This document shows, piece after piece, positions 44,164-60,130 of a stretch of 64,000 bases of DNA. Both the position numbers and the translations under genes were made by a program. The notes beneath the pieces are model-generated. The model was not told the origin of the DNA. It saw only the letters and a program-made list of their open reading frames with translations, and did no database searches. The stretch is from a virus (Duplodnaviria > Caudoviricetes): the IMG/VR virus record IMGVR_UViG_3300037400_003286. One strand, written 5' to 3'. How positions within the stretch are numbered: position 1 is the first letter of the stretch; each line of letters starts with the position of its first letter.

Positions 44164-44168
44164 ATTGA

Positions 44169-44420
44169 TTACAAATTATATTTTTCGATAATCTTATTGA
44201 CTATTTTTGTTACAGCAACACCATCAATAAAGTAACCTGTTAAATCAATATCTGTTGTTGTATCATCCTGATATCTTCCCCAAAGAATCTTATCTTCAGC
44301 ATCCAATATAACAGACTTAAACTCAGGATTTTCTGTTTCAACTTGAGTATCAATGAATAAATCAACGTCAAAGTTTCCAGCCTGGAATACCAAGTTTGTA
44401 TTTCTTAATATTATTTTCAT
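44169..44420 (-). CDS. Small protein sharing the ENPEF...LD...K(I/V)L(W/Y)G repeat with the upstream fibre
   Basis: ENPEFKSVILDAEDKILWG versus DNPEFVEVHLDGSEKVLYG. Confidence 0.65.
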   Translation of the reverse strand: MKIILRNTNLVFQAGNFDVDLFIDTQVETENPEFKSVILDAEDKILWGRYQDDTTTDIDLTGYFIDGVAVTKIVNKIIEKYNL

Positions 44421-44433
44421 ATTGCAATTTAAA

Positions 44434-45879
44434 TTATGTTTCTTCTATATAAGGAATCATCTTATATTTCTTACCAGATAAGATAAGTATATCATTTGAT
44501 GAATCGAATTGTAACAAAGGATTACCGTTTAAATCGTAAAGTTCATTAACAAATATACCTTTCTTGTCATCTACTACACCTATCTTAGCGTATGTTTCTG
44601 TATCATTTTCATTCTTGAATTCGATTAGTTCAGAATCTTCATTTGTTTTTTCAGCAAATATCTTAGATACCTCTATGTTATCATCTGTAGCCAGGATTAT
44701 AGATTCCTCATCTTCAGTGTTGAATACATTATTGATATTTGATGTCTTATACTTTAACTCAGATATGGAACTATCAACATTTTGTTTTATATCTAATAAT
44801 GATTCATCAACGTATTTCTTGCTTGTATACTTAGTCCAATCGTTAGTATCTAAACTGAAAGAATCTATCTTACATTGATATAAAACAACAGAATCATCGG
44901 AATTAAACGTGAGTATTAATCCTCCGTTTCTGTATTCTTCTGGAACAGCAGCGATTGCTTCCTCCAAAGTGTAATTAATTCCTATGCTTCCATCGTGCGC
45001 ATTTACGTTGTAGAAACGTGTCTCAATTTCAAGGATACTTGCATCTATTTTCTCACCCTTTTCATTAACATAATTCATGATCTGAGAAGGTACACCAGCA
45101 CCGAAATAGAAATCACCATCATTCTTTACACCATAAAGAACCTTACTTGAAGAATCAAGATGAACCTCAGCATACTCTGGATTCTCTTCATAGTAACCAA
45201 GATTATGAATACTTGCATCCAATGCTGCGATACTTGCATCAACTCTGTCAAAACCAGTACTTACACTAGCGTCAAGTCTTGCAATGTCAGCCTTTGTACT
45301 TGCATCCAGAACAGCAATCTCATTTTCAATCTTCTCAATGTTTACATTAATACTGGAATCTATCTCTTCCTTCAGATCTTCAATCTTACCGTCAATCTCA
45401 GCACTCTTCCCATCAACATAACTCTTTACCTGAGAAGGTACACCAGCACCGAAGTAGAAATCACCGTCAGCTCTTACACCGTACAGAACTTTTTCAGATC
45501 CATCAAGGTGAACCTCAACGAACTCTGGATTATCCTGTACAATGTTGTTTGGAACAATACTCCACTTGCTGGTGTCGTTATCCCAGTCCTTTGATTTCAA
45601 CTGGTAAATCTCGAAGTCACCTTCCTTTGAAATAAATGTAAGGATCAATCCACCAACATGATAAGATGCTGGAACTGCGGCAATGGCTTCATCCAAAGTG
45701 TACTTTGCATCAGCACTGCTGTCATGAGCAGAAACATTGTATAACTGCTTGTTCAACTGAGACTGATAACTATTTGAATCATAGTCGAAAATCTCCTGAG
45801 AAGCAGAGACAATGCTACCAGTAGCGGCTGAATGAAGCTCACCAGGTATAGTAACTAATTTACTTGTATCTCTTGCCAT
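44434..45879 (-). CDS. MARDT-family virion fibre/appendage protein, copy 1 (constant 323 aa plus variable C-terminus)
   Basis: N-terminus shared with 52427 and 54908; internal duplications; coiled coil with DAS repeats; contains the crossover site at 44899-44922. Confidence 0.75.
   Translation of the reverse strand: MARDTSKLVTIPGELHSAATGSIVSASQEIFDYDSNSYQSQLNKQLYNVSAHDSSADAKYTLDEAIAAVPASYHVGGLILTFISKEGDFEIYQLKSKDWDNDTSKWSIVPNNIVQDNPEFVEVHLDGSEKVLYGVRADGDFYFGAGVPSQVKSYVDGKSAEIDGKIEDLKEEIDSSINVNIEKIENEIAVLDASTKADIARLDASVSTGFDRVDASIAALDASIHNLGYYEENPEYAEVHLDSSSKVLYGVKNDGDFYFGAGVPSQIMNYVNEKGEKIDASILEIETRFYNVNAHDGSIGINYTLEEAIAAVPEEYRNGGLILTFNSDDSVVLYQCKIDSFSLDTNDWTKYTSKKYVDESLLDIKQNVDSSISELKYKTSNINNVFNTEDEESIILATDDNIEVSKIFAEKTNEDSELIEFKNENDTETYAKIGVVDDKKGIFVNELYDLNGNPLLQFDSSNDILILSGKKYKMIPYIEET
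44899..44922 (-). other. Putative invertase crossover site S1
   Basis: Minus strand GGATTAATAC-TCAC-GTTTAATTCC, an imperfect palindrome; inverted partner at 46151-46174. Confidence 0.7.
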
Positions 45880-46064
45880 GCTTTTTATTTTTTGTTGTTT
45901 TATTTATTTACTCTTTCACAACGTAGAAACAACCGTTTATCATCAAATACCAGGCTGATCTAATAGCTGTGTTTTAGTATTTATCTTGATAAAAGATCGA
46001 TCCTTTTTGTCGTTTATCTCTATTTATTTTCGTTAATTTTTGTGAAAATGAAAAATTTTAATGA

Positions 46065-46174
46065 ATTAATTCCTACGTAGGAATTATACCTATTTATATA
46101 TATTATTTCCGACGTTGGATTTAAACGTTTGGCCTAATTAATTCCTATTATGATTTATACCAACGTTTAATTCC
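46065..46174 (+). other. Putative invertase crossover site S2 (46151-46174) with upstream accessory half-site array
   Basis: TGATTTATAC-CAAC-GTTTAATTCC; TTCC-N5-6-(G/T)GAwTTAwAC units at 46070, 46107 and 46142. Confidence 0.7.
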
Positions 46175-46678
46175 GATGATTTAGTTCAACTATATCAATG
46201 TAAGATAGATTCTTTCAGTTATAATACAGATGATTGGACCCAATATACAAGTAAGAAATACGTTGATTTATATTTGGAAGAATTACAATCAACTGTAGAC
46301 AGCTCTATATCTAATATTGACAGTTCAATTTCAACACTAAGATACAAGACATCTGATATTGATAAGGCATTCAACACTGAAGATGATGAATCAATTATAC
46401 TTGCTACGGATGATAATTTTGAAGTAACTAAAATTTATGCTGAAAAGACAATTGATGAATCAGAAGTATTAGAATTTGCTAACGAATCAAGTGATGAAAT
46501 ATATGCTAAGATAGGCGTAGTTGATGATAAGAATGGTGTAAATACAATAACATGGAAAAATTTTCCATATGCTAAAATAGTACTTAATAATGGTTATGTT
46601 GAAATATATGAAGCTAGTTCTTATCCAAATTATGTATTAACCGCAAAATTTGATACAAATGGTAATCCAGTTGAATAA
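46163..46678 (+). CDS. Silent start-less alternative C-terminal cassette for 44434..45879
   Basis: Open frame TFNSDDLVQLYQCKIDSFS... homologous to residues 324 onward of the MARDT-1 protein, diverging after VVDDK; in-frame TGA at 46151 just upstream. Confidence 0.8.
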   Translation, partial: TFNSDDLVQLYQCKIDSFSYNTDDWTQYTSKKYVDLYLEELQSTVDSSISNIDSSISTLRYKTSDIDKAFNTEDDESIILATDDNFEVTKIYAEKTIDESEVLEFANESSDEIYAKIGVVDDKNGVNTITWKNFPYAKIVLNNGYVEIYEASSYPNYVLTAKFDTNGNPVE

Positions 46679-46682
46679 ATTA

Positions 46683-46711
46683 AAAAAGGATCACTTTATG
46701 TGATCCTTTTT
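46683..46711. terminator. Bidirectional terminator
   Basis: aaaaggatcac-tttat-gtgatcctttt. Confidence 0.85.
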
Positions 46712-47445
46712 TAATTATACTTACTCCATTTCCTTGGCATACCGTCCATTCTGTATTCATCTACATCCTTATACACATCCCATAGATTTATATACTCATA
46801 GATAGTGCATACGTGTACTCCGAACTTCCTTGATAACTCAGCCTTAGACTTCCCTCTAGCTAATCCTATGATAAGTTCGTCGTGATACTTATCCATCTTT
46901 GTATGTTTACTCTTGCTTCCTTTAGGTCGTCCTAAAGTTTTTCCCTTTCTCCTTGCAGTAGCAAGTCTCTCCTTTGTACGCTCTATTATCAATTTTCTTT
47001 CTGTTTCGGCAGCATATCCGTAAATCTGTAATATTAGTTTAGCCATAGGATCATCTTTATCCAGGCTATAGTTTTCCTTGAGTGTATAGATCCCTATTTG
47101 TTTCTCTATACATATTCTCATAATCTCACTGATAATCTGCATGCTTCTTCCGAGTCTGCTTACCTCCGTGCATATGATTTTGTCGCCAGCATTAGCTTCG
47201 CTTATAATCCTCTGTAATTTTCTCTGCTTTATATCTTTAACGCCGCTGATTGTCTCATTCTCCCAGCTATCTACATGCAATCCTCTTGCATCACAATACT
47301 TGTTTATTTCGAATCGCTGGTTCTCTGTGTCCTGATGTGATGTGCTTACTCTGATATAAGCATAGATTTTTCCAACGTTTTTGTTCTTTACTTCATTCTT
47401 CTTTGATTTCCTAATCTTCTTTTTAATTTCTTTTTGTTCTTTCAT
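46711..47445 (-). CDS. Serine recombinase (resolvase/invertase family)
   Basis: YAYIRVST (catalytic Ser), ISG, EVSRLGRS, AETERKLIIERTKE, LGRP, C-terminal HTH. Confidence 0.93.
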   Translation of the reverse strand: MKEQKEIKKKIRKSKKNEVKNKNVGKIYAYIRVSTSHQDTENQRFEINKYCDARGLHVDSWENETISGVKDIKQRKLQRIISEANAGDKIICTEVSRLGRSMQIISEIMRICIEKQIGIYTLKENYSLDKDDPMAKLILQIYGYAAETERKLIIERTKERLATARRKGKTLGRPKGSKSKHTKMDKYHDELIIGLARGKSKAELSRKFGVHVCTIYEYINLWDVYKDVDEYRMDGMPRKWSKYN

Positions 47446-47474
47446 TTATTTTTATTTTTAATAGTTAAATATAT

Positions 47475-48584
47475 TTAAATCATTACAAGATCCAATTCAT
47501 TATTACTGAAGAATCCGTCAATTCGTGGGCATACTTTATTATTATCATAGCACCACATTATGACATCATTCATGTCGAGTTTCTTTCCAGACTTTATTCC
47601 AAGTTCCTTCTTGAAGTTATCCCACATGAATACGCTGTATCCTTCCCTTATCTTTTCTATTGCGTGTTTTCTTCCTGGTTTGTCGTCATCGTATAGATAC
47701 CTTGTCATGAACGGGAAGTCTATCTGCTTTGTTGCACCGCACAATGCTATACAGTTCTTAATAAGGAATGAATCCATCGGGCCTTCTGTAACGGTAACAT
47801 AATTGCTGTAGTCAACAAGAAGGATATTGAAGATCATTGACAATTCATTTATGTTTTCTGGTACAGTCACATTATCCTTCAATATAATCTCGTGGATCTT
47901 CTGTAGTCCGTATGTCTTATACTTTGCATTCTTATCTGTAAAACTCCTTACCTGGATACCGAATATCTTTCCACTTTTCGTGAGGTTAAGCACAAACAGC
48001 TTGTTTGCCTGAGTTGAATACATGAACTTCTCGAAATTATACTGTCTTCTGTTTATTAGGTATGTTTTACCGTAACAGTATTCGTTGCACTCAGTAAGTC
48101 CAAGAAGTTGTCTGAAATACTCCCTGTCAATTGCATAGCTGTCTATCAGTTCATCGTCGTAAAGATATGATACGTTACTTGAGCTTTCCTTAGTTAATCC
48201 AGTATTCTTCTCTGATATGTAGTCAGCCATTCCGAGTGATACGTTCTGTCCGTACATTTTCAGGAATTTCTGTACACTCATGCATGTTCCACAGTTGAAA
48301 CATTTATAAAGGTTCTTGAACTTACCTTCGAGAATAATGTTTCCCCTCTTCTTATAGTTGTCATGTGCGGAATCTCCACAACAAGGTGCAGCAAAAGATA
48401 TCCTGTCTCTGTGTACACGTATCTTTTGTTTTGCTGAATTTCCAGGAAATACTTTCTTTAATATTTCCTGAATCTTTGGTGTAATCTCACTAATGAACTC
48501 CTCCTTCGTCATCGTCAGATGAGAAGAAGCATCGAATGATTGTGAGCTTAAATTAAAAATATCTTTACTATTATCCATTGTCAT
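47475..48584 (-). CDS. gp61: DNA primase (T4 gp61-like)
   Basis: PCCGDS...KRG...YKCFNCG Zn finger; TOPRIM VTEGPMDS and YDDD. Start moved from TTG 48599 because the promoter occupies 48595-48608. Confidence 0.88.
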   Translation of the reverse strand: MTMDNSKDIFNLSSQSFDASSHLTMTKEEFISEITPKIQEILKKVFPGNSAKQKIRVHRDRISFAAPCCGDSAHDNYKKRGNIILEGKFKNLYKCFNCGTCMSVQKFLKMYGQNVSLGMADYISEKNTGLTKESSSNVSYLYDDELIDSYAIDREYFRQLLGLTECNEYCYGKTYLINRRQYNFEKFMYSTQANKLFVLNLTKSGKIFGIQVRSFTDKNAKYKTYGLQKIHEIILKDNVTVPENINELSMIFNILLVDYSNYVTVTEGPMDSFLIKNCIALCGATKQIDFPFMTRYLYDDDKPGRKHAIEKIREGYSVFMWDNFKKELGIKSGKKLDMNDVIMWCYDNNKVCPRIDGFFSNNELDLVMI

Positions 48585-48664
48585 GTATATACGTTGCAAA
48601 TATACAACTTATTTTTATAATATGAAACATATTTTGAATAAATATCTAAACAATATATATTCAT

Positions 48665-48943
48665 ATGGATGATATTCTCGAAATGTCTATCGATGACATT
48701 TTATTATTGATTAAAAAGGTACTATATAATGCTGTAAAGTCAGGAGAAGCGAAATCTGGAGATTATTTTTTATTGGATGATGACGGTGTATATATAGGTG
48801 ATCCAGAATCATTTGATGCTGATGTTCTTTTTTATGCTGTTAAAATAGACGATGTTGTAGATTTCTCAAAGGATCATCCAGAAGATTATATAAGTTTTGA
48901 CAATATAAATATAAGTGATATTGTCCGTAATTTTTCATTATAG
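48665..48943 (+). CDS. Hypothetical acidic protein
   Basis: 92-aa ORF. Confidence 0.55.
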   Translation: MDDILEMSIDDILLLIKKVLYNAVKSGEAKSGDYFLLDDDGVYIGDPESFDADVLFYAVKIDDVVDFSKDHPEDYISFDNINISDIVRNFSL

Positions 48944-48977
48944 AATTTAAGATAAATAATGAAAAGGTTGTTATAAT

Positions 48978-49853
48978 ATGCCAAATCTTAACAAATATAA
49001 AGCTTATAAAAACATAGCTGATAATTACGATCAGGCGTTAGATCTTGTAAGGGATAAACTTCCTGTTCTTGGTGAACCAGTGGTGGTTCCTTATTATTCA
49101 CCAGACGTTTATGATCCTGATAGGCGAATAAGCATGTTATTTGTTGTAGGTTCGCTTAATGGTGAATTTAAAGTTTTTGAACCAAATGATGACATAATAG
49201 CACACATAGACAGTAGCTACAATGCTATGGAAAATTATGTCGATACAGCAGATTCAAGCCTTCAGGGACAGATTAATGATATAGTTGCATCACAGACATC
49301 AATATCGTTATCTGGATCTCCAAGTGTTATATACGCAGCGACGAATGATCAAACCGTATCATTGTCATCAAAAATTACAACTATCGGGACAATAAGCTCA
49401 CATAAAATACTCAAGGGTTCAACGATAATAAGTTCTGGAACAGGTTCAAATTTGAACGGATCAGATTCAAGCACTAACGCAACAAATGATATTACATACA
49501 CAGCCGAATCTATAATTAATGGAGTTAAGGTAACTAAAAATTCAACAGTATATGTAAGATATCCTATCTATTTCGGTGCTTCTTCAACATGGGATTCCAT
49601 AAACAATGATGCGCATAAGGCTTCAGCAAGAATAAGTCCTGTTGGAACATACCGTATTATTGTGTCACAGAATGGACATAGCGTATTTTTCAATGTTCCT
49701 TCAGAAATGAGTATAACAAAAGCAACAGTAAACGGGTTTGATATGCCGTTTAAGTCATATGTTTCAAAAACAATTGATGGTAAGACATATAAATCATATG
49801 AAAGTGCAAACACATATACCACAAGCACATTCGATGTTGTAATTGTTTCATAA
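48978..49853 (+). CDS. Virion appendage protein, YPIY(F/Y)G family
   Basis: C-terminal ~215 aa nearly identical to 53403..54374; late promoter at 48951. Confidence 0.65.
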   Translation: MPNLNKYKAYKNIADNYDQALDLVRDKLPVLGEPVVVPYYSPDVYDPDRRISMLFVVGSLNGEFKVFEPNDDIIAHIDSSYNAMENYVDTADSSLQGQINDIVASQTSISLSGSPSVIYAATNDQTVSLSSKITTIGTISSHKILKGSTIISSGTGSNLNGSDSSTNATNDITYTAESIINGVKVTKNSTVYVRYPIYFGASSTWDSINNDAHKASARISPVGTYRIIVSQNGHSVFFNVPSEMSITKATVNGFDMPFKSYVSKTIDGKTYKSYESANTYTTSTFDVVIVS

Positions 49854-49935
49854 AAAGAAAGGGATATAACAGTTAAACAATATAAAATAGATATTAATCT
49901 ATAATATTTAAAATTAAAAATAAAAAAATTAGAGT

Positions 49936-51246
49936 ATGCAAAATTTTCTTGATGCGTCTGGTTTGAATAGATATACCCAGGCTCTTAAAAATGGTGATTT
50001 TACTGTAGGTGATGCGTCTACCGCGTTTTATGCTTCACATGCTTCAGCAACAGGTATTATTGGTATAATTCCTCTTGCTAACATTCCACAAGGTGCAATT
50101 GAAAAGCTTGTAAAGGTTGCGGATCAGGCTGCAATGCTTAAATTGACGACTGATGATGTACAGAATGGTGATTCTGTTCTGACAATCGACAACAACCACA
50201 TGTACATTGTTACCGATGAAGATGAACTCGGTACGATGAATGCGTTCACTGAGTATAGCGCAGGTACAGCAACTCGTGCTTTACAGGCTGACTACGCAAC
50301 CAAAGCTGGTGACGCTTCTACGGCTGATGAAGCTACGCATGCTACTTCGGCTACAACAGCTACAAACGTTGAATGGACTGGAGTTCTGAACAAGCCTACA
50401 GAGTTCAAGCCTGAACTTCACACACAGGATGCTAGTACAATCACCAAGTTGACTGGATACCAGGAGGCCGAGTCTGCTTCCGCTGTTACAGCTGATGATT
50501 CGCTGATTGCAGCTCTCGGTAAGATTGAAAAGAAGGCTGATGACGCTGCTAAATCCGCTGGATTCCACACTCAGGATGGTAGCACAATCGTAGGTTTGGA
50601 TGGATATAATGGTCCTGCTTCAACATATACTGGCGTAGCTTCAACTGATAGTCTTGAATCTGCTCTTGCTAAGATTGAGAAGAAGGCTCTTGATTCTTCT
50701 AATACAGCTGATTGGGGAAGCATCACAAACAAGCCTACTACTTATGATGCTAGCATCGTAATGATGGGTGGTTATGAGAAGAAGAGTGGTGATGTTGCTG
50801 CTACAGACAGTGCTCTTGTTGCTGTAGGTAAGGTGGAAAAGAAGGTTGATGACGTTACAGATGCATTTGAAGGACACACTCATGGTGCTGCTGATGTAAG
50901 CACAATGGCTGGATACAATGGTCCTGCTGCTTCTTATTCTGCTGTTGCTGCTAGTGATACATTAAATCAGGCAATTGCTAAAATTGAGAAGCAAGCCCTT
51001 GATTCTTCGAACAGTGCAGACTGGGACAATATCGTTGACAAACCATCAGAATTTACTCCAGAAAATCACGCCGCAACAAAGGTTACATCTCTTGGAACAT
51101 ATTCAAAGGCTGGTTCTGTAGAAGATGTTGCTGCTGGTGATTCTCTTGTGATAGCTCTCGGTAAGATTGAGAAAAAGGCTGACGATGCAGCAGATGCACC
51201 AATTCCAGCAGCTACAATCGATGCTATTGTAAACGGAACATACTAA
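49936..51246 (+). CDS. Fibre protein with five DSLxxA(L/I/V)xK(I/V)EK repeats
   Basis: Repeating units with W..(V/I).NKP and HT(Q/H) spacers typical of phage fibre shafts. Confidence 0.75.
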   Translation: MQNFLDASGLNRYTQALKNGDFTVGDASTAFYASHASATGIIGIIPLANIPQGAIEKLVKVADQAAMLKLTTDDVQNGDSVLTIDNNHMYIVTDEDELGTMNAFTEYSAGTATRALQADYATKAGDASTADEATHATSATTATNVEWTGVLNKPTEFKPELHTQDASTITKLTGYQEAESASAVTADDSLIAALGKIEKKADDAAKSAGFHTQDGSTIVGLDGYNGPASTYTGVASTDSLESALAKIEKKALDSSNTADWGSITNKPTTYDASIVMMGGYEKKSGDVAATDSALVAVGKVEKKVDDVTDAFEGHTHGAADVSTMAGYNGPAASYSAVAASDTLNQAIAKIEKQALDSSNSADWDNIVDKPSEFTPENHAATKVTSLGTYSKAGSVEDVAAGDSLVIALGKIEKKADDAADAPIPAATIDAIVNGTY

Positions 51247-51259
51247 AAACCATTAAAAC

Positions 51260-52090
51260 TTGAACGACAGGATGAAACAATATCTTGATGCAAACGGACT
51301 AAACAGATATCACACATCATTCAAAGATGACATTGATGCATCTTATAATGGATTGAAATATTCTGTTGACAGCTCTTTCGGACAAATGTCTCAAAGGGTT
51401 GAAGATGGATTTGATTCTGTTGACAGTTCTATAGCTGATCTTATTTTATCTGATATAGGTCTTGCTAATGCAATTGAGACATTGGTTAACGAAAGAGACA
51501 GAAAATATGAGAGTTTAAGTGATAAGATAGATAATTTAACTGAGAATTCTCTTCTTGTTTCTTTGTCTGTTTCACCAACTACAATTTTTGTTGGTGATTC
51601 ATCTACTCTTGTTTTTTCCGCAAAGTCAAAGGATAGTGCTTCTAGCATTATAATTACAGATGACAACGGAACTCAAATTGCTTCTGGCTCTGGAACTAGT
51701 CTTGTTGGTTCGACGACAGTAACGCCAAGTTCTGAAGGTGTTCTTGGATATTCTGTAACTGCTGTGGTTAACGGAACAACACTATCAGCAAAATCTTATG
51801 TTAATTGTGTAAGACCAATTTATTATGGAAGCGGAACAAATTATACAGATGCTACAATTGTTTCTGGTGCTAAACAAACACCAAACGGAAAATACACAAT
51901 ATCTGTAAATTCTGCTAATAATTATATTTACTTCGTCGTTCCATCTTCAATGACTATAGCCAAGGTTTTAATGAATGGATTAAGTATGCCTATGCAAGCA
52001 ACATCAGTACAAAAAGACGGTCAATCATATACAGCTTATCAAAGTGTAAACGGATATGATGTTGGTACGTATAATTTAGATGTTGAATAA
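51260..52090 (+). CDS. Virion appendage protein, YPIYYG family
   Basis: N-terminus YLDANGLNRY shared with 49936; C-terminus homologous to 40473..41210. True start probably ATG 51272 (MKQYLD). Confidence 0.65.
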   Translation: MNDRMKQYLDANGLNRYHTSFKDDIDASYNGLKYSVDSSFGQMSQRVEDGFDSVDSSIADLILSDIGLANAIETLVNERDRKYESLSDKIDNLTENSLLVSLSVSPTTIFVGDSSTLVFSAKSKDSASSIIITDDNGTQIASGSGTSLVGSTTVTPSSEGVLGYSVTAVVNGTTLSAKSYVNCVRPIYYGSGTNYTDATIVSGAKQTPNGKYTISVNSANNYIYFVVPSSMTIAKVLMNGLSMPMQATSVQKDGQSYTAYQSVNGYDVGTYNLDVE

Positions 52091-52109
52091 TTTATTACGA
52101 TAATAATGA

Positions 52110-52142
52110 TAAAGGTGGATTTGTAATCCACCTTTATTTTTT
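52110..52142 (+). terminator. Intrinsic terminator
   Basis: taaaggtggatt-tgt-aatccaccttta followed by a T-run. Confidence 0.85.
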
Positions 52143-52246
52143 CTAAATGTTGGTGATAAACGGTGTTTTATTTCCGTCATTGCAAATATACAACATTTGT
52201 TTGAAAAATGAAAATAAAATTTTATAATTGATGAAAATAAACGGTT

Positions 52247-52524
52247 ATTTAAAACCGATAATGGATTTATACATAAAAATAATATGCGTCAAAATAAGAT
52301 ATATAATGAAATGCTTATATTACATTCAAAAAAATATTCAGATAAATAGATAAAGAAACAGTATAATATCTGTCAACTCTGGATAACTGTTACAATAAAA
52401 GAAAAATAATTAAAATAAATCTTGATATGGCAAGAGATACTAACAAGTTAGTTACAATACCTGGTGAACTACATTCAGCAGCAACTGGTGGTATTGTAGC
52501 AGCCGCTGAAGAAATTTTTGATTA
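52247..52524 (+). repeat. Direct repeat of the promoter and 5' end of a MARDT gene (other copy at about 54715-55006)
   Basis: Near-identical leader, e.g. ATATTCAGATAAATAGATAAAGAAACAGTATAATAT and TCTTGATATGGCAAGAGATACTA. Confidence 0.85.
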
Positions 52525-52860
52525 CGATGCAAATATAACTCTTTATACTATGTTTTTATTAATAGCCATCAAGGAACATGGGATGCTAATGACGTAGAAG
52601 AAACGACTGCTTTAGAATCAAGAACAGACCCATACTATTCCAATAACTTGGAACTGAATGGAAAGACTTTGAAAGAACTGTCTGCATTAATCTATACTAC
52701 AATAGAAAATAACAATGTAAAAATTTGCAATTTGTATCAAACTTTGGGATGGAATAACTATAACTTCAATGAGTTTTTTAATGATACAGATTCTACACAT
52801 CCTTTCTACGGATTTAAGCAGATAGCAGAGAAAATATCTAAATTTATTTTGAGCAATTAA
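52427..52860 (+). pseudogene. Internally deleted MARDT-family gene, copy 2, with an SGNH-hydrolase-like C-terminal remnant
   Basis: MARDTNKLVTIPGELHSAATGGIVAAAEEIFDY is joined out of frame near 52535 to a fragment ending DSTHPFYGFKQIAEKISKFI (DxxHP). Confidence 0.75.
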
Positions 52861-53345
52861 CAGAGTTCTGATTGTATAATATGTACAGAAGTTTCAAGAT
52901 TGGGACGTTCCATGCAGATAATATCTGAAATTATGAGTTTCTGTGTTGAACATGGTGTATCAATATATACATTGAAGGAAAACTATTCGCTAAATGATAA
53001 TAATCCAACAACCAAACTAATGCTTCAGATATACGGATATGCAGCAGAAACAGAAAGAAACCTTATATCAGAAAGAACAAAGGAGGGGTTGGCCGCATTA
53101 AAAAGAGAGGGTAAAAATTAGGAAGGCCGTGTGGTTCAAAATCAAAGGAACTGAAATTAGATCAAAGCAGAGACCGTTTGATTATGTTGTTAGCTAATAA
53201 AAAGCCTAAAACACAAATTGCAAAAATTCTTAAAGTGAACACATCAACTATATATGACTATATGAAAATAAGGGATATAGACGCTGATGTTCAAGAATAT
53301 CAAAAAATTGGTATGCCGAAGAAATGGCACAAATATAACAATTAA
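52861..53345 (+). pseudogene. 5'-truncated, frameshifted serine invertase paralogue
   Basis: IICTEVSRLGRSMQIISEIM...AETERNLISERTKEG; frameshift in an A5 run near 53113-53117, then LGRP...GMPKKWHKYNN; lacks the catalytic RVS region. Confidence 0.85.
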
Positions 53346-53352
53346 AAAACAC

Positions 53353-53377
53353 AAAAGGATCCAAATAGGATCCTTTT
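53353..53377. terminator. Bidirectional terminator
   Basis: aaaaggatcc-aaata-ggatcctttt. Confidence 0.85.
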
Positions 53378-53402
53378 ATTATTTTATATTAATAATTCTT
53401 TT

Positions 53403-54374
53403 TTATGAAACAATAACAACATTTAATGTGCCTTTAATATAAGTGTTTGCACTTTCATATGATTTATATGCCTTACCATCAATTGTTTTTGAAACATATG
53501 GTTTAAATGGCATATCAAAACCACTTACTGTTGCTTTTGTTATACTCATTTCAGAAGGAACATTGAAAAATACACTATGCCCATTCTGTGACACCGTAAT
53601 GCTGTATGTACCAACAGGGCTTGTTCTTGCTGGAGCTTTATGTGAATCATTGTTTATAGCGTCCCATGTTGCAGCAGCACCGAAGTATATAGGATATCTT
53701 ACGTACACTGTTGAATTTTTAGTCACCTTAACTCCATTAATTATAGATTCTGTTGTGTATGTAATGTCATTTGTTGTATTGGTACTTGGATCCGATCCGC
53801 TCAAATTTGAACCTGTTCCAGAACTTATTATCGTTGTCCCCTTTAGAATTTTATGCGAACTTATTGTTCCAATAGTTGTAATTTTTGATGACAATGATAC
53901 GGTTTGACCGCTCTTTGCTGCGTATATAACGCTTGGAGATCCAGATAACGATATTGATGTCTGTGATGCAACTATATCATTAATCTGTCCCTGAAGGCTT
54001 GAATCAGCAGTTTTAACATATGTTTCGATACTTGAATCAGCAGTTTTAACATATGTTTCCATAGCGTTATAACTACTGTCTATGTGTGCTTCTATGTCAT
54101 CCATTCTATGCGAAGCAATCCAAGCGTCAGTACCATTTGATATTATATACCATTCTCCAGTTGGTGAAGCATGATCACCGTTTACAACATTCCATGCGGT
54201 GATCTTATGTGTTGATGGGTTATATGTTAGTGGTGCATTTGATGGATTATCTTTTGCTGCTTGGAATTCTGATCCGTATAGTGTAACCCTATGTTTTTCC
54301 TGATATGCTCTTCCTGGAACATAATCACCAAAATATACTGGTATTCGTCCTATATTTCTAGTTTGTAAAGGCAT
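53403..54374 (-). CDS. Virion appendage protein: N-terminus like 33870..34574, C-terminus like 48978..49853
   Basis: Direct sequence comparison; late promoter at 54404-54411. Confidence 0.65.
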   Translation of the reverse strand: MPLQTRNIGRIPVYFGDYVPGRAYQEKHRVTLYGSEFQAAKDNPSNAPLTYNPSTHKITAWNVVNGDHASPTGEWYIISNGTDAWIASHRMDDIEAHIDSSYNAMETYVKTADSSIETYVKTADSSLQGQINDIVASQTSISLSGSPSVIYAAKSGQTVSLSSKITTIGTISSHKILKGTTIISSGTGSNLSGSDPSTNTTNDITYTTESIINGVKVTKNSTVYVRYPIYFGAAATWDAINNDSHKAPARTSPVGTYSITVSQNGHSVFFNVPSEMSITKATVSGFDMPFKPYVSKTIDGKAYKSYESANTYIKGTLNVVIVS

Positions 54375-54450
54375 AGTTATATATGTTTTGTTTTTACTAA
54401 ACTTATTTATCTATTTATTCAAGATTTTGTAATTAAAATATTAAAGTAAT

Positions 54451-54510
54451 TTCCGTCATGTAATTATATGGAGGTTTATTTCCAACAGTGGAAGTGGACA
54501 GAGTTCTGGA
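54451..54510 (+). repeat. Recombination repeat A (core 54460-54483)
   Basis: 59/60 identical to the reverse complement of 57908-57967; 54471-54508 is identical (38 bp) to 55657-55694. Confidence 0.85.
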
Positions 54511-54714
54511 TAAAACTATGTGCATTTGCACCAAATACTCCTTCACTTTTAACCAGATTATTGCTTGCTGGTGTTGGGATGTCGTCAACTCCCTGCCAAT
54601 TAGAAGGTGTAGTGTTAGTATCAGACATCAATCGGTATTGCACATACTTATTACCAGAAATAGAACTATCACTGTTGGAAATAACCCCCAATATAATTAC
54701 ATGACGGAATTAAT
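54476..54714 (-). pseudogene. Recombination repeat B (core 54677-54700) plus a truncated silent C-terminal cassette
   Basis: ATTAATTCCGTCATGTAATTATATTGGGGGTTATTTCCAACAGTG, then ISNSDSSISGNKYVQY, homologous to ISNSGSGQSSDNKYVQY of the 54908 protein. Confidence 0.75.
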
Positions 54715-54907
54715 ATTTAAAGCCTATAATGGATTTAATTAAGTATTATACATAAAATAATATACGTTCAAATAAGATAAATAATGAAATGTTTATATGA
54801 CATTCAAAAAATATTCAGATAAATAGATAAAGAAACAGTATAATATTTGTCAACTCTGGATAACTGTTACAATAAAAGAAAATAATTAAAATAAAATAAA
54901 TCTTGAT

Positions 54908-57808
54908 ATGGCAAGAGATACTAGCAAGTTAGTTACAATACCTGGTGAACTACATTCAGCAGCAACTGGTAATATTGTGGCAGCAGCTGAAGAAGTTTTT
55001 GATTATACTAAAAACATGTATCAAAAAGATATAAACCAAAAGGTTGCTTATATTAAAGAGGATAGTTCCGTTGCCCCTATTCCTTCATTTAATCCACAAA
55101 GCCAAACTGTTCATCTTGATGAACAAGTTTTAAGTAATGCGCAAAAAAAGCAGGTTAGAAAAAACATAGGATTGGGTAATGGTGATATTGATAGCACACC
55201 TACATCTGGAAGCGACAATGTTGTAAGAAGTGGTGGAGTTTATTCTTCAATGCAAGAATTACGTTCCACAGTAAATCCACAGGTTGGATATTATACATGT
55301 TCCACAGCAGGTAACACAGCAGCAAAAGTAATTGATGCTTCTGGATATACACTTTTGAAAGGTGGTGGTTTACGTGTAAGATTTACAGAAAAGAATACAG
55401 CCGCAAACGCTACATTGAACATTGAGCAGACTGGTGCAAAGTCTTTATATTATAACGGTGTTCGTGTTTCAACAAACAACTCCTGGTATGCAGGGGAACT
55501 TATGACTTTGTTCTATGATGGTGCTGCATTCCAACTAAATAGTTTACCAGATTTAGACGAATATGATGTGTCAGCAAGAAACGGCGGTCAGGCATTCACT
55601 TTTGCTGAAGCAGTGGCACTTGTTCCAGAAGCTTACAGACATGGTGGATTAAAACTGAGGTTTATTTCCAACAGTGGAAGTGGACAGAGTTCTGACAATA
55701 AGTATGTACAATATTTCTGTAATTCTCAAACCTTTACTACTGATATAACTGCTTGGGAGAGGATTAATTTGGAAAATGATGTAATGAATTTGCGAAGTGA
55801 TGTAGGAGAAAGAGAAAGCGAAGTGGTAACGCATACAATTTGTACATCATCTAATTTTACCAATAGTGGGAAAGGCGTAATAGCAGATGAAAGTTCTGAA
55901 AATTTTGGAAACACCACATCTTCTTCTGATTTCTCTTGTTCTGTTTACATGGATATTGAAGACTATGCTGGTCACAATCTAAAATATACAAGATGGATTA
56001 TACCAACTACGTCAGGCTCTAAAGAAAAATCATTCGGAGTTGTTTTCTTTACGCAACAAGCGAAGGAAAATGCCATAAGTGGTCAACAATTCAAGGAAGA
56101 AGGTACTACTGGTTCCTATGAGATTACTTCAATTATAATCCCATCAAACGCAAAATATGTAAGATTTACATTCCCAACTGCGAATCTTGCTAACTGGTCT
56201 GCTTATGTCGAGGAAATAGTGTATGGAGATTACACAAGCGGACTTGGGAAAAAAGTACAGGATTTGGAATCGGAAGTTGATGCACTTGTGGAAACAACTA
56301 AAGAGGGGTATGATGAGCAAGTATTCAAGTATTCAACCGTTGCAGATAATGGCTACGGAATGCTGCCATCTTCTATAATTCTTTCTCAAGAAGGTGATTA
56401 TATAGAGTTTGATGCTATAATCAAGAACTTAAACACTCAGTTCAGCCGTCTTAGTACTGGTACAGGGACAAAGCCAGGCGTCTATGTCTATAATGGAATA
56501 CAAATAGCTTTCAGAGCACCAAGCACTTCCGCTACGGTTACCTATACGAGTTCTACCGAATTTAGAGTTGATAAAAGACATACTTATAAATTATTGCTTG
56601 ATTCAATCTCAAATGGAACAAGAACATATAAGGTGTATTTAGATGGTGTAGAGATTCCTCTTTCTTTGTCAAATACTGTTGATTGGGTATTTGATTGTAT
56701 CGGTTACTATGGAGGTTCAACCAATGGCGCAGTATGGTATTACCTGAAATACAAGTCGGCTGGAGTTGAGAATACCCTTACAAGATTCCAGACAACCCTT
56801 ACCAATGTACAGAACATTGTAGATACCACGGTCACAAAGCATATCTATGGTATAAATGAACTCACTGATAAGATAGATGAATATTCTGTACCAAGTGGAA
56901 TCCTCCGTTATGACAGTGAGGAAGAAAAGTTTGAATTCTTGTCAAGATATGGTAAAACTGATAAGTATTTCTCTTTCATTGTTAAACACGCCATAAATGG
57001 TACTGTTCTTCAGAATCTGTGGCGGGTAATGGGTGGCAACCTTTATACTTACGATGATGGGTTTAACCTTGTACATTCTACAATCTATGGAAATTCAGAG
57101 AACGAATGGGCTGCACTTTTCAGTGAGTTCAAAGCAGCTAATAACTATACAGGAGGCTATCATGGTGGCGAGATGATTACAGATTCTGGGTGTTTTGTTA
57201 AGTTCTTCGCAGATGGTATAGAGATTACGGATTTGTCATCTGATTTTGAGTTCCCATGTGAAAAGTTTGAATACATCCAGTATTCTGCATTGCATGAGGT
57301 ATATGGTCCTGATGGAGAAACTCCTGTAGTTGGTCAGCCTATCTTCGCCTATCATACAAAGCGCACTTCGTTCCAAGATGCTCAGATGGATTGTCGAAAT
57401 GATGTAGCATTTATCCTTGATGTAACCCGTAGAAGTTATCATGCAGGACTTTTCTCGCCTGAAAGAAATATTGGCACTTCAGCAATCATTCCTTTCGGTG
57501 TTATAGCAACTTTGTCAGGCTCTGGCAATTTCACTATGGCAACATACGGTGAATATGTAAGTGAAATCAAGTTCTGGAATCAGACAAATAGATGTGGTGT
57601 TAACATTGACAGTGAATTTATTGCTGGAATCAATGAAGATGAAATGTCTGTTCTTGGTACAAGTTCAGGACAGGCAGAGTTTGGTGTTTTAGATAATGGC
57701 TCTGGAAGGACTGATGCAAAATATTACAAGAGAACCAACAAGTCTGTTGCAATCACAAACGGTGATGTAATATCTACTCGTCACTCGGCTAAATTCATGG
57801 CAATTTAA
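54908..57808 (+). CDS. MARDT-family fibre/receptor-binding protein, copy 3 (constant 250 aa plus variable C-terminus)
   Basis: Phage tail-fibre-like segment YYTCSTAGNTAAK...ATLNIEQTGAK; internal crossover site in GGLKLRFISNS; beta-rich C-terminus. Confidence 0.75.
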   Translation: MARDTSKLVTIPGELHSAATGNIVAAAEEVFDYTKNMYQKDINQKVAYIKEDSSVAPIPSFNPQSQTVHLDEQVLSNAQKKQVRKNIGLGNGDIDSTPTSGSDNVVRSGGVYSSMQELRSTVNPQVGYYTCSTAGNTAAKVIDASGYTLLKGGGLRVRFTEKNTAANATLNIEQTGAKSLYYNGVRVSTNNSWYAGELMTLFYDGAAFQLNSLPDLDEYDVSARNGGQAFTFAEAVALVPEAYRHGGLKLRFISNSGSGQSSDNKYVQYFCNSQTFTTDITAWERINLENDVMNLRSDVGERESEVVTHTICTSSNFTNSGKGVIADESSENFGNTTSSSDFSCSVYMDIEDYAGHNLKYTRWIIPTTSGSKEKSFGVVFFTQQAKENAISGQQFKEEGTTGSYEITSIIIPSNAKYVRFTFPTANLANWSAYVEEIVYGDYTSGLGKKVQDLESEVDALVETTKEGYDEQVFKYSTVADNGYGMLPSSIILSQEGDYIEFDAIIKNLNTQFSRLSTGTGTKPGVYVYNGIQIAFRAPSTSATVTYTSSTEFRVDKRHTYKLLLDSISNGTRTYKVYLDGVEIPLSLSNTVDWVFDCIGYYGGSTNGAVWYYLKYKSAGVENTLTRFQTTLTNVQNIVDTTVTKHIYGINELTDKIDEYSVPSGILRYDSEEEKFEFLSRYGKTDKYFSFIVKHAINGTVLQNLWRVMGGNLYTYDDGFNLVHSTIYGNSENEWAALFSEFKAANNYTGGYHGGEMITDSGCFVKFFADGIEITDLSSDFEFPCEKFEYIQYSALHEVYGPDGETPVVGQPIFAYHTKRTSFQDAQMDCRNDVAFILDVTRRSYHAGLFSPERNIGTSAIIPFGVIATLSGSGNFTMATYGEYVSEIKFWNQTNRCGVNIDSEFIAGINEDEMSVLGTSSGQAEFGVLDNGSGRTDAKYYKRTNKSVAITNGDVISTRHSAKFMAI
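55646..55694 (+). other. Recombination site C inside the fibre gene
   Basis: GGATTAAAAC-TGAG-GTTTATTTCC imperfect palindrome plus a 38-bp match to repeats A and D. Confidence 0.8.
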
Positions 57809-57838
57809 CATACTTTTTGTAATAAGTATTTACATAAT

Positions 57839-57873
57839 AAAAGATCGATCTAATTATAAGATCGATCTTTTTT
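57839..57873. terminator. Bidirectional terminator
   Basis: aaaagatcgatct-aattata-agatcgatcttttt. Confidence 0.85.
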
Positions 57874-57907
57874 GTTTTATAATCTAATAGTTATGTACAG
57901 AATTATT

Positions 57908-57972
57908 TCCAGAACTCTGTCAACTTCCACTGTTGGAAATAAACCTCCATATAATTACATGACGGAATTAAT
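57908..57972 (-). repeat. Recombination repeat D (core 57935-57958)
   Basis: Inverted copy of repeat A; reads RFISNSGS-stop in the fibre frame. Confidence 0.85.
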
Positions 57973-58085
57973 GGTAATATACAACTTTATTTTGATATTG
58001 AAAAATGAAACAAGATTTTTCCTCATTCTCTTTCACGTATTAAATAAAAGATGTATATTTGCAACGGAATATAAATGAAACTTAT

Positions 58086-58439
58086 ATGATAGACTTAAAT
58101 AAACATCCAGATTTAATCACTAATCCGAATACTCTTGAAAACGTTTATGTGTATGACAGAGTGAATGGTAAGATTGATGAATGTAAGGTAAAGTATATTG
58201 ATCAGTGCTTGTTTGCAATATTAGAGTATAATGGTAAGGATCGTTGTTATGATTTGAGAAATGCTGTAATCTTTCCACTTGATACTTCATTATCTCCAGT
58301 TAATTTTGATTATCTTGTAAGCTTTGACAGGAAATCATTATTATGGTTGAGAGATAGTGACAGACATTGTTTGAATTCACTAAGATCAAAGGTTCTAACG
58401 ACAGTCGATAAGATAATAACTCCTAAAGACGTTGAATAA
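58086..58439 (+). CDS. Hypothetical early protein
   Basis: ORF downstream of the promoter at 58050-58063; start moved from TTG 58059 to ATG 58086. Confidence 0.6.
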   Translation: MIDLNKHPDLITNPNTLENVYVYDRVNGKIDECKVKYIDQCLFAILEYNGKDRCYDLRNAVIFPLDTSLSPVNFDYLVSFDRKSLLWLRDSDRHCLNSLRSKVLTTVDKIITPKDVE

Positions 58440-58522
58440 TGGAAAAGGAAAACTGTTATTTTTCTATAATATTATTTTTTGAAAAACATAATTTATTTTT
58501 GATGATAAATATATAAACAAAT

Positions 58523-59926
58523 ATGAATTCACAATCATTGATTACATATAAGTTAAAATATAATGCAAGTGATGAAGCTAACGCTTTTATTCTGAAATGT
58601 ATGAAACAATACAGTTCATTACTTCATTATGGTTATAACCGTGTGGCTGATGGTTGGTCCGCAAAGCATATAAAAGATGCAATGAAAACTCAACTTAATA
58701 ATGTTGAGTTGATGGATAGTCATATTGTTTCTTGTGCTCAACAGCAGGCAACTGGAATACATGAGCAAAAAACTAAAACAAATCCTGGATATAAAATTAT
58801 ATTCGGTGGAAAGAAAAATTATATTCGTAGATGTAAAGGATTGATTAGCAAAGAAGAATATCAATATAATAGAATATCACCTTTATTATCTATGGGTGAA
58901 GCTAATCAGAAAGGTAACAGGAAATTCAAGATCAATCAGGATTTACATTCTATAACGTTCCAGATTAACAGAAATAATCATTATAATCTTGAACTTAAAG
59001 GTATATATGGTAAACGTGAAAAGACGTTATCAAAACTATATGAGTTACAGGAAAAGAAAGATATTCCTATAACATATAGTATTGACAGAGATTATATATA
59101 TGTTTCTTTCGATGAATCAAAAATTAAACAGTATAAACGTAAAAGGTTTGTTAAAAATCGTGTAATGGCTATAGATATGAATCCTAATTATATTGGTTGG
59201 TCTATAGTTGACTGGAATGGTGAAGGAGAAAATGATTTTAGAATAGTTAAAACAGGTGTATTCTCTATTGAAAAAATAAACAAACTTGATGAGCAGTTAA
59301 GAAAATATTCAGGAACAGATTCAACAGATTCAATAAAAATTTACTTGACAAATAAACGTACACATGAAACATATCAGATTTCAAAGAAACTGATTGATAC
59401 TTGTCTTTATTATCAGTGTGAATCTTTTTGTATAGAAGATTTGAATATTAAACATAAAGACGCTGAACGAGGAAAGAAATACAATAGACTTGTTAATAAC
59501 TGCTGGTGCAGGAATAAACTTGAACTTAATTTGCAGAAACGATGCAATATGTTTGATATAAAGTTCATTAAAGTACAACCAGATTTTAGTTCTTTTGTTG
59601 GAAATTTCATTTTTCGTTCTCTTAATTTGCCAGACATGGTTCTTGCATCAATAGAGATAGGAAGACGTGGATATGAATTCAATTTACAGTATATAGAAAA
59701 AATAAAAGAAATAAAACGTAATATTATATTTCCAGATTTAGGTGTATACAAAAACTTCTATGCCAAGTCGTTGGAAGAATTTGGTATAGAAGATGACACT
59801 GGTCTGAAGGATATATATTATGTTCTAAAAAAGTCTAAAACCAGATATAGACTTTCTCTGGAGCAAACTGAAACAGAGTTTTCAAGGTGTTTTTCAAAGA
59901 GATCTCTAATAACTAAAAAATATTAA
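58523..59926 (+). CDS. tnpB: TnpB/Cas12f-like RNA-guided RuvC nuclease (IS200/IS605/IS607 type), no transposase nearby
   Basis: RuvC-I MAIDMNPNYIG, RuvC-II CIEDLNI, RuvC-III PDMVLASIEIGRRG; IFGGKK and GEANQKGNRKF motifs; no CxxC Zn ribbon. Confidence 0.8.
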   Translation: MNSQSLITYKLKYNASDEANAFILKCMKQYSSLLHYGYNRVADGWSAKHIKDAMKTQLNNVELMDSHIVSCAQQQATGIHEQKTKTNPGYKIIFGGKKNYIRRCKGLISKEEYQYNRISPLLSMGEANQKGNRKFKINQDLHSITFQINRNNHYNLELKGIYGKREKTLSKLYELQEKKDIPITYSIDRDYIYVSFDESKIKQYKRKRFVKNRVMAIDMNPNYIGWSIVDWNGEGENDFRIVKTGVFSIEKINKLDEQLRKYSGTDSTDSIKIYLTNKRTHETYQISKKLIDTCLYYQCESFCIEDLNIKHKDAERGKKYNRLVNNCWCRNKLELNLQKRCNMFDIKFIKVQPDFSSFVGNFIFRSLNLPDMVLASIEIGRRGYEFNLQYIEKIKEIKRNIIFPDLGVYKNFYAKSLEEFGIEDDTGLKDIYYVLKKSKTRYRLSLEQTETEFSRCFSKRSLITKKY

Positions 59927-59947
59927 ATAACTTTAATACATTTTGTT

Positions 59948-60130
59948 ATGATTAATAAAAAACACAATCTGAAAGATAACACAATCCAAATATTTACTGG
60001 TATGTGTAACGAAACATATGATGGCGAAATCGTTCAGCATCTTGATTGCATTGATGACAACCTGTATTATGATATTGATGATATTGTAATGTAGATTGAT
60101 GTTCCAGATGTAAATAAAGTTAAAATATGA
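59948..60130 (+). pseudogene. Small gene remnant after tnpB, with an in-frame TAG at 60092
   Basis: MINKKH...DIVM*IDVPDVNKVKI, ending in an ATGA overlap with the next gene. Confidence 0.45.

Follow-up and report, generated by a model that had tools for sequence, protein, structure and literature searches.

Organization of the fibre locus

The window analysed here is a 64,000-nucleotide (nt) stretch of DNA from a virus of the Caudoviricetes (Duplodnaviria; IMG/VR record IMGVR_UViG_3300037400_003286), whose parent contig measures 196,487 nt in the protein index. It contains an open reading frame (ORF) of 966 amino acids (aa) at 54908-57808, encoding a fibre-like protein, and around this gene one sequence block is present in four copies, A (54451-54525, + strand), B (54664-54714, − strand), C (55645-55710, + strand, inside the gene) and D (57893-57980, − strand). 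A preliminary description, made from the sequence alone, had named this locus switch 2 and interpreted it as a four-site shufflon around a receptor-binding fibre. The four sites do lie where it placed them, and alignment bore out the repeats it reported. The repetition is far beyond chance: A (54451-54510) and the reverse complement of D (57972-57913) differ at one of 60 positions, A and C are identical over 38 nt from GAGGTTT onward, and the 13-mer GAGGTTTATTTCC occurs exactly only three times in the 64 kb, in A (54471, +), C (55657, +) and D (57947, −), while B (54689, −) carries GGGGGTTATTTCC at that position. Loci from other metagenomes with which the window was compared are labelled L006 to L017.

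The promoter region of the fibre gene (54739-54907, +) lies inside the B-C segment, contains GATAAATAGATAAAG at 54818-54832 as well as repeats D5, D8 and D11, has a second copy at 52276-52426 and is 92-96% conserved in L006, L008 and L012. Statements about promoters are based on repeated motifs only, a scan for sigma-70 promoters having been uninformative (16 found, 18.4 expected). The constant 5' part of the gene (54908-55657, +) comprises 250 codons with 87-96% nucleotide identity to relatives. It is followed by the variable 3' part (55658-57808, +), a 716-aa tip that is the sole full-length tail at switch 2, and then by a bidirectional terminator hairpin (57839-57871).

Only remnants lie behind the other three sites, and their translations agree with those given previously. 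A-right (54472-54540, +) consists of 13 codons and a stop (54472-54513), reading RFISNSGSGQSSG-stop in the fibre frame, and about 27 nt more. The B tail (54476-54688, −) is 70 aa long; its first 57 aa or so are homologous to real tails, with 68-70% identity to the first 50 aa of those in L006, L007 and L009, and over its final 13 aa it is antisense to A-right. D-right (57893-57945, −) reads RFISNSGS-stop, eight codons and a stop joined onto the terminator flank.

Crossover sites and recombinases

Site C (55645-55670, +; TGGATTAAAACT-GA-GGTTTATTTCCA), which codes for G-L-K-L-R-F-I-S, displays the 26-bp layout of the Hin/Gin/Cin/Min (Din) family, two 12-bp arms around a 2-bp core with the inner motif AAAC-N2-GTTT, and its arms agree at 8 of 12 positions. 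Sites A (54459-54484, +; TGTAATTATATG-GA-GGTTTATTTCCA) and D (57934-57959, −), 26-bp solo sites of identical sequence, the former within a conserved block at 54451-54510, combine a good right arm with a weak, non-coding left arm, as do hixR and the mix sites (PMC3241671, Table 3). The GA core of C is also that of gixL, TTCCTGTAAACC-GA-GGTTTTGGATAA, although the outer triplets at C are TGG/CCA instead of the published consensus TTC/GAA (PMC3241671, Table 3). Judged by sequence, A-D are crossover sites of the Din type, placed, as the preliminary description had proposed of its repeats, at the junction of the constant and variable parts of a fibre-like gene.

The four sites differ in their apparent condition. 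A (+), C (+) and D (−) all carry the GA core, match perfectly over at least 24 nt and look competent for recombination, while site B (54676-54701, −; TGTAATTATATT-GG-GGGTTATTTCCA) has three substitutions within its central 7 nt, namely the change of core to GG noted earlier and two flanking changes. B is probably inactive; its positional counterpart in L013 (248, −) retains both the consensus and the GA core. A variant specific to the window, GTGGAAGT, occurs in A, C and D; none of the C sites of L006, L008 and L012 has it. This pattern points to recent exchange or homogenisation, or else to constraint, in the window genome. The 35-nt centre of site A is identical to the silent-type sites of L006, L007, L009 and L014, and six silent-type sites in four genomes agree at every one of the 17 non-coding and 18 coding nt that surround the core. 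The outer flanks of these sites fall into three types that match those of A, B and D in the window, the left flank of D being orthologous to L006 16346 and L014 19169.

The sole intact recombinase found in the window is a 244-aa serine DNA invertase encoded at 46711-47445 (−), 7-11 kb from the sites of switch 2. It matches Pfam Resolvase (PF00239, 1.2e-34; also, weakly, HTH_28) and PHROG 125, DNA invertase (1.2e-48); among solved structures it is best matched by Gin (4m6f, 1.1e-16), in an alignment that spans the catalytic YxRVST motif and the GRP linker. Of a second invertase a pseudogene remains (52810-53339, +), detected by tblastn: it is frameshifted and extends over residues 68-244, the catalytic N-terminus (the first 67 residues) being absent. 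It is probably the former local enzyme of switch 2. The orthologous local invertase adjoins sites in L006, L007 and L008, where an IS607-like TnpA-TnpB element splits it, and is cut down to 52 residues in L011. Pairs of this IS607-like kind (serine TnpA plus TnpB) occupy L006 1748-3575, L007 11707-13534 and L014 2955-4811, those of L006 and L007 sitting within the local invertase gene. A scan of 20 larger ORFs in the window returned no tyrosine recombinase. Since both recombinase genes are of the serine type and the sites of the Din type, "shufflon", which denotes an Rci system, names the wrong family, even if the mode of operation is shufflon-like.

The surviving invertase adjoins another switch of the window, switch 1 (44860-44965 / 46105-46210). 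There the in-gene site includes GGATTAATACT-CA-CGTTTAATTCC and the silent site TGATTTATACC-AA-CGTTTAATTCC, so that the two centres are unlike each other and unlike those of switch 2; in its left half, which is similar to the non-coding left halves of A, B and D, the silent site recalls switch 2. That the 46711 enzyme would act on the GA sites of switch 2 is an assumption on our part.

Relatives with full-length cassettes

Close relatives of the fibre constant part were found only in metagenome assemblies from ENA, Logan and JGI, where a scan of the JGI metagenomes yielded three loci, L012 and L011 being of use. The INPHARED phage records gave no megablast match for 44000-58200 and no tblastn match for the fibre, exact scans of IMG/VR for the silent-type site and for the coding-type site gave zero matches, and a protein search of IMG/VR returned distant relatives only.

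The fullest arrangement is that of L006 (sample ERZ28574841), a 35.9-kb contig whose four sites each have the GA core, two of them being divergent expression sites. Behind the sites at 3985 (+) and 16329 (−) are silent cassettes of 554 and 753 aa, respectively, the latter with an SGNH esterase domain; the sites at 8976 (−) and 10752 (+) are each within one of two divergent fibre genes, whose tails measure 621 and 979 aa, respectively. L009 (ERZ27232959) represents the simple two-site form, with a silent 611-aa cassette behind a site with an A-type left flank. L013 (ERZ27291662) is about 90% identical to window 54537-55750 and shares its layout of B, promoter, constant part and C, with an intact B-type site (GA core) and a leftward tail that is open to the contig end over at least 83 aa. 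The full-length cassettes that the preliminary description suggested looking for are thus present behind A-type, B-type and D-type sites, and its proposal that B x C inversion flips the promoter together with the constant region describes a design that is intact in L013. Two or more full-length alternative 3' cassettes exist in L006, whereas the alternatives in the window amount to 8, 13 and 70 aa.

Comparison of the expressed genes locates the junction closely. The window and L012, L006 and L008 share about 95% nucleotide identity over the 300 nt before the core (96% upstream for L012), and identity falls to background 20-60 nt past it; the tips of the window and its relatives are mutually unrelated. 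Three relatives have, at a single exact point within the same block, three partners that differ from one another, and the junction module is widespread, being common to 261 proteins. This breadth could favour the view that no site-specific recombination takes place at switch 2, the repeats being kept as a protein motif and spread by duplication and homologous recombination while the invertase serves switch 1 only. The right half of each site is indeed coding in C (RFISNS), and the locus has clearly been shaped by homologous recombination at short repeats. Against this view stand, however, the identity of 17 nt in the non-coding left halves of six sites from four genomes, a two-fold Din-type symmetry of C beyond coding needs, the invertase genes or remnants that adjoin such sites in the window as well as in L006, L007 and L008, and the three different partners at a single junction, and we regard it as improbable.

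The same loci bear on whether the repeats exist as assembled. Invertible regions often break metagenome assemblies, and the preliminary description had allowed that the repeats might be assembly artefacts; contigs mis-joined at a repeat would then explain the locus. The repeats of 60-90 nt are nevertheless below typical read size, and what lies to the left of each site was recovered independently in assemblies of other samples: the left flank of A in L009, that of D in L006 and L014, that of B together with the promoter in L007 and L013, and C in every relative. This recurrence indicates that the repeats are not assembly artefacts, an explanation that we find barely credible.

Loss of cassettes in the window

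Synteny with L006 reveals what has become of the tails. Window 57815-57918 corresponds to the L006 terminator region after the expressed tail and window 57928-58071 to L006 site 16329 with its outer flank; the 753-aa cassette between them, with which the D position is syntenic, is absent from the window. D-right passes straight from the site into the terminator flank via a repeated element, so that recombination between short direct repeats is the most likely cause of the loss of the D cassette. On the other side of the gene, the L006 554-aa cassette and 621-aa tail have their starts matched by window 54447-54524 and 54537-54742, respectively (A-right matching L006 3960-4033). These starts lie about 4.8 kb apart in L006, and their window counterparts abut at about 54525-54540, in keeping with the earlier suggestion that A and B are remnants of longer cassettes joined by a deletion. 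By this sequence comparison the cassettes behind A, B and D are deleted in the window; the mechanism we infer.

Every tail begins with TTCTG(G/A)(T/C)AATAAGTATGT(G/A)CA, and a similar element occurs on both sides of the terminator hairpin that follows the tail (window 55690-55712, 57817-57840 and 57893-57925; L006 13850-13952; L009 9085-9190). The stretch from +27 to +54 of each tail, TTCTGGTAATAAGTATGTGCA with the codons S-G-N-K-Y-V-Q, likewise recurs beside the bidirectional terminator after each tail. Each cassette is thus bracketed by short direct repeats, which may account for the clean removal of cassettes and, perhaps, for their acquisition.

Erosion is also evident elsewhere. L014, L015 and L017, from three samples, carry perfect C and D-type sites with a 61-aa remnant behind the D-type site; the contig of L016 stops before the D-type position. 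In L014 (11089-17322; also in L015, L016 and L017) a short 317-aa fibre has the same constant part and site and is followed by a 2077-aa leucine-rich-repeat protein. Given the broken local invertases and the eroded loci of L014, L015 and L017, erosion of the switch is common in the clade.

Traces of further rearrangement lie to the left of the locus. Window 52267-52535 duplicates the fibre promoter and the initial 36 codons of the gene at about 92% identity to 54739-55005; the invertase pseudogene (52810-53339) follows in a relative orientation opposite to that of L008. This arrangement is a scar of an older rearrangement. Reconstruction of the full history of 52150-54460 (stub promoter, pseudogene and 323-aa gene, compared with L008, L009 and L014) was abandoned, several breakpoints being involved, not all of them at sites.

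Predicted fold and putative role of the fibre

The fibre protein has no Pfam and no PHROG match. An AlphaFold2 model of residues 1-331, built from a 33-sequence alignment, has a mean predicted local distance difference test (pLDDT) score of 62.8, rising to 70-94 for residues 128-290, and its sole significant Foldseek match is the baseplate/tail-fibre complex of phage Pa193 (9b45, E 4.1e-4). In the model, the crossover codon, R251, falls in a beta-strand (249-254) of a folded domain to which the tail supplies two more strands (266-271 and 283-286). A crossover at this point would leave the 258-aa product discussed below without part of its domain.

Leads for the fibre from the ESM Atlas were fibre families with scores below 0.9. 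Tip residues 400-966 matched only weakly there, to mixed glycoside-hydrolase-like folds with template-modelling (TM) scores below 0.5, and no function of the tip was drawn from these matches. The tips of relatives bear SGNH esterase, metallophosphoesterase, GDPD or peptidase M14 domains or fibre repeats, that of L012 having HAEG repeats. The evidence supports a fibre-like protein with an exchangeable distal part, and the fibre/baseplate-like predicted fold, together with the enzymatic tips in relatives, points to a putative role in receptor binding. Tip residues 414-965 are 81% identical to P0001, a protein on a 40.8-kb ENA contig whose N-terminus differs: it is short and begins just before the junction module, and a gene for a 208-aa resolvase lies 3 kb downstream. 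P0001 may be a silent cassette annotated as a gene.

A probable worn-down multi-site inversion system

Taken together, these data suggest a model in which switch 2 is, with good probability, a worn-down multi-site fibre inversion system of the Din kind whose sites still look competent. In the ancestral design, of which relatives still bear witness, a serine invertase would cut the 2-bp GA core within the codons of the conserved beta-strand (G-L-K-L-R-F-I-S), linking one constant base to any of several long tips stored as inverted cassettes without a promoter. Two moves would be available, one flipping a tip-carrying segment (C x D), the other flipping the promoter and constant region, which are set between a pair of outward-facing tips (B x C). 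Deletion has left the window with 13, 70 and 8 codons of the cassettes behind A, B and D, respectively, that of D probably having been removed between the short repeat at the cassette start and its copy beside the terminator; the core of B has mutated to GG, and the local invertase is now a pseudogene.

If the 46711 invertase still acts on A, C and D, C x D inversion would toggle the fibre between 966 aa and a 258-aa stump. Codon 251 (AGG) spans the crossover, so that the product is computed as 250 + 8 = 258 aa, the length previously estimated for a tip-less fibre. The enumeration of inversion products in silico proposed earlier gives four isomers with A, C and D active, two with the full 966 aa and two with the stump. 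A-right never joins the constant part in this set because A and C keep the same relative orientation, and A x D would invert the whole 3.5-kb module with the protein unchanged. For the window genome the consequence is modest, since with one usable tip left the switch could at most turn that tip on and off.

With B also working, 16 isomers arise, including 13-aa and 70-aa ends. This number, and the alternating orientation of the four sites, are what a working shufflon delivering alternative functional fibres would present. Such a system is very improbable in the window, where the tails that could replace the 716-aa tip are the three short ones described above, the longest of them ending in antisense of A-right, where the core of B departs from GA, and where the enzyme is of the serine type rather than Rci. 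The preliminary description thus holds for the sites, the C x D stump, the B x C design and the remnants, and fails for the shufflon family and for the shuffling of cassettes.

A refinement, compatible with erosion, is that the residual toggle has been selected as an ON/OFF phase switch. Solo A and D would then be kept so that some progeny carry a tip-less fibre, either with other fibres of a multi-fibre phage taking over or with a decoy receptor avoided. The perfect state of A, C and D with their shared GTGGAAGT, the recurrence of perfect sites beside decayed cassettes in L014, L015 and L017, and the retention of an intact invertase in the window genome all accord with this idea. The stump, however, would end within the predicted folded domain and is likelier a null than a designed short form, its sequence was absent from the protein search, B, the partner for the other move, has decayed, and perfect sites are equally explained by recent deletion. 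Selection for ON/OFF switching is accordingly possible but unlikely.

Several observations weigh against a worn-down inversion system as the explanation. Among 5.8 billion proteins there was neither a 258-aa OFF form nor a near-identical constant region fused to another tail. A search of shorter proteins likewise gave no OFF form of 258 or 263 aa, its matches being contig-end cuts or genuine 317-394-aa fibres with their own tips of about 135 aa. No inverted isomer was seen among the relatives or in the protein database. In an all-versus-all comparison of 36 tails no cassette was both silent and expressed, and a search for an expressed copy of the silent 753-aa cassette of L006 recovered only the cassette itself. 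Despite their perfect C and D-type sites, L014, L015 and L017 share one fixed arrangement, and tip exchange among relatives could also reflect ordinary homologous recombination in the conserved 60 nt or so. Finally, the surviving invertase adjoins switch 1, whose right arm (CGTTTAATTCC) and CA/AA centres differ from those of switch 2. Weighing the apparently competent sites against these points, we consider residual flipping in the window genome nearly as probable as its absence.

Comparison with known inversion systems

That Din invertases invert tail-fibre genes is textbook knowledge from the enterobacterial systems of Mu, P1 and p15B. Switch 2 resembles the Mu G segment with Gin (and the C segment of P1 with Cin and the P segment of e14 with Pin) in its small serine invertase, in its 26-bp site with the AAAC-N2-GTTT centre and the GA core of gix, and in the position of that site at the constant/variable junction of a fibre gene, with alternative 3' parts that are inverted and promoterless. 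It departs from Mu in having four sites rather than two, in its outer triplets, in that the promoter and constant part can lie between sites (B-C in the window, intact in L013 and L006), in the deletion of the alternatives in the window and in its host, probably one of the Bacteroidota, in which, to our knowledge, no Fis-type enhancer is expected. The genome of this giant gut phage, with a GC content of about 35% in the window, is large and encodes NrdD, a DnaB-type helicase, SbcC, a gp32-like protein, a prohead protease and a major head protein.

The Min system of p15B, whose mix sites have been tabulated (PMC3241671, Table 3), is closer in number of sites, with the same type of enzyme, more than two crossover sites around fibre 3' cassettes and many isomers formed through overlapping invertible segments. 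It retains several usable cassettes behind one constant part, whereas the window retains one tip, and L006 differs from it in having two divergent constant parts that share four tips. The R64 shufflon likewise uses multi-site inversions to swap the C-terminal end of an adhesin-like protein, but with a tyrosine recombinase, Rci, and with sfx sites that lack symmetry (PMC11850598). Switch 2, with two serine-type recombinase genes and Din-symmetric sites, does not belong to that type. Mpi of Bacteroides flips the promoters of capsule loci and would offer a parallel for one serine invertase serving several invertible loci kilobases away; in switch 2, unlike Mpi, the flip falls inside phage coding sequence. 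Mpi-family genes are enriched near programmed inversions (PMC9881135).

A literature search found no description of Din-type fibre inversion for giant phages of gut anaerobes, returning instead surveys that cover gene-altering inversions in general and one recent note about putative viral invertons. On the sequence evidence, switch 2 would differ from known systems in its host group and phage type, its outer arms, the placement of promoter and constant part between sites, the two expression sites with four tips of L006, and a crossover in a structural strand. What the locus and its relatives would add is a promoter plus constant part as the flipped piece and a crossover written into a structural beta-strand. 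They also provide a series of snapshots, with the complete four-tip system of L006 at one end and eroded solo sites (the window, L014, L015 and L017) at the other, the local invertase often being destroyed, and so bear on how uncultured phages diversify and then freeze their host range. The locus matters for the annotation of such fibres as well, since silent cassettes are called as separate genes.

Core dinucleotides and neighbouring features

A more speculative extension, which we consider rather unlikely, is that one invertase serves several fibre switches with the 2-bp core as an address, that solo A and D are under selection for ON/OFF control of a single fibre tip, and that the repeat at the cassette start and beside the terminator is a handle for tip gain and loss. 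If so, the cores GA (switch 2), CA/AA (switch 1) and GT (a site-like element within the invertase promoter block) would stop cross-recombination between switches.

The GT core belongs to a Din-like full site, TGGTGATAAACG-GT-GTTTTATTTCCG, at window 52152-52177, with the arm spacing of C, in the block that bears the promoter-like −7 box of the local invertase. Two AAACGGT elements flank this box in L006 (3855-3940) and L008 (3797-3905), and 3' of a 276-aa gene the window, L007 (5395-5431) and L012 (1975-2010) show three different partners directly after AAACGGT. The element at 52152-52177 could act as an operator for the invertase, or it could be an additional crossover site that has a core of its own.

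Two features of the surroundings complete the region. Two convergent paralogues, of 291 and 323 aa, form with the 3' parts of their genes a 631-nt inverted repeat (89% identity; window 49226-49856 and 53400-54030) that encloses 3.5 kb; in L009 their homologues lie on the same strand. To the right, window 58071-59970 carries two genes (126 and 467 aa) with no family matches and represents, relative to L006 and L014, an insertion between the D flank and the shared right flank.

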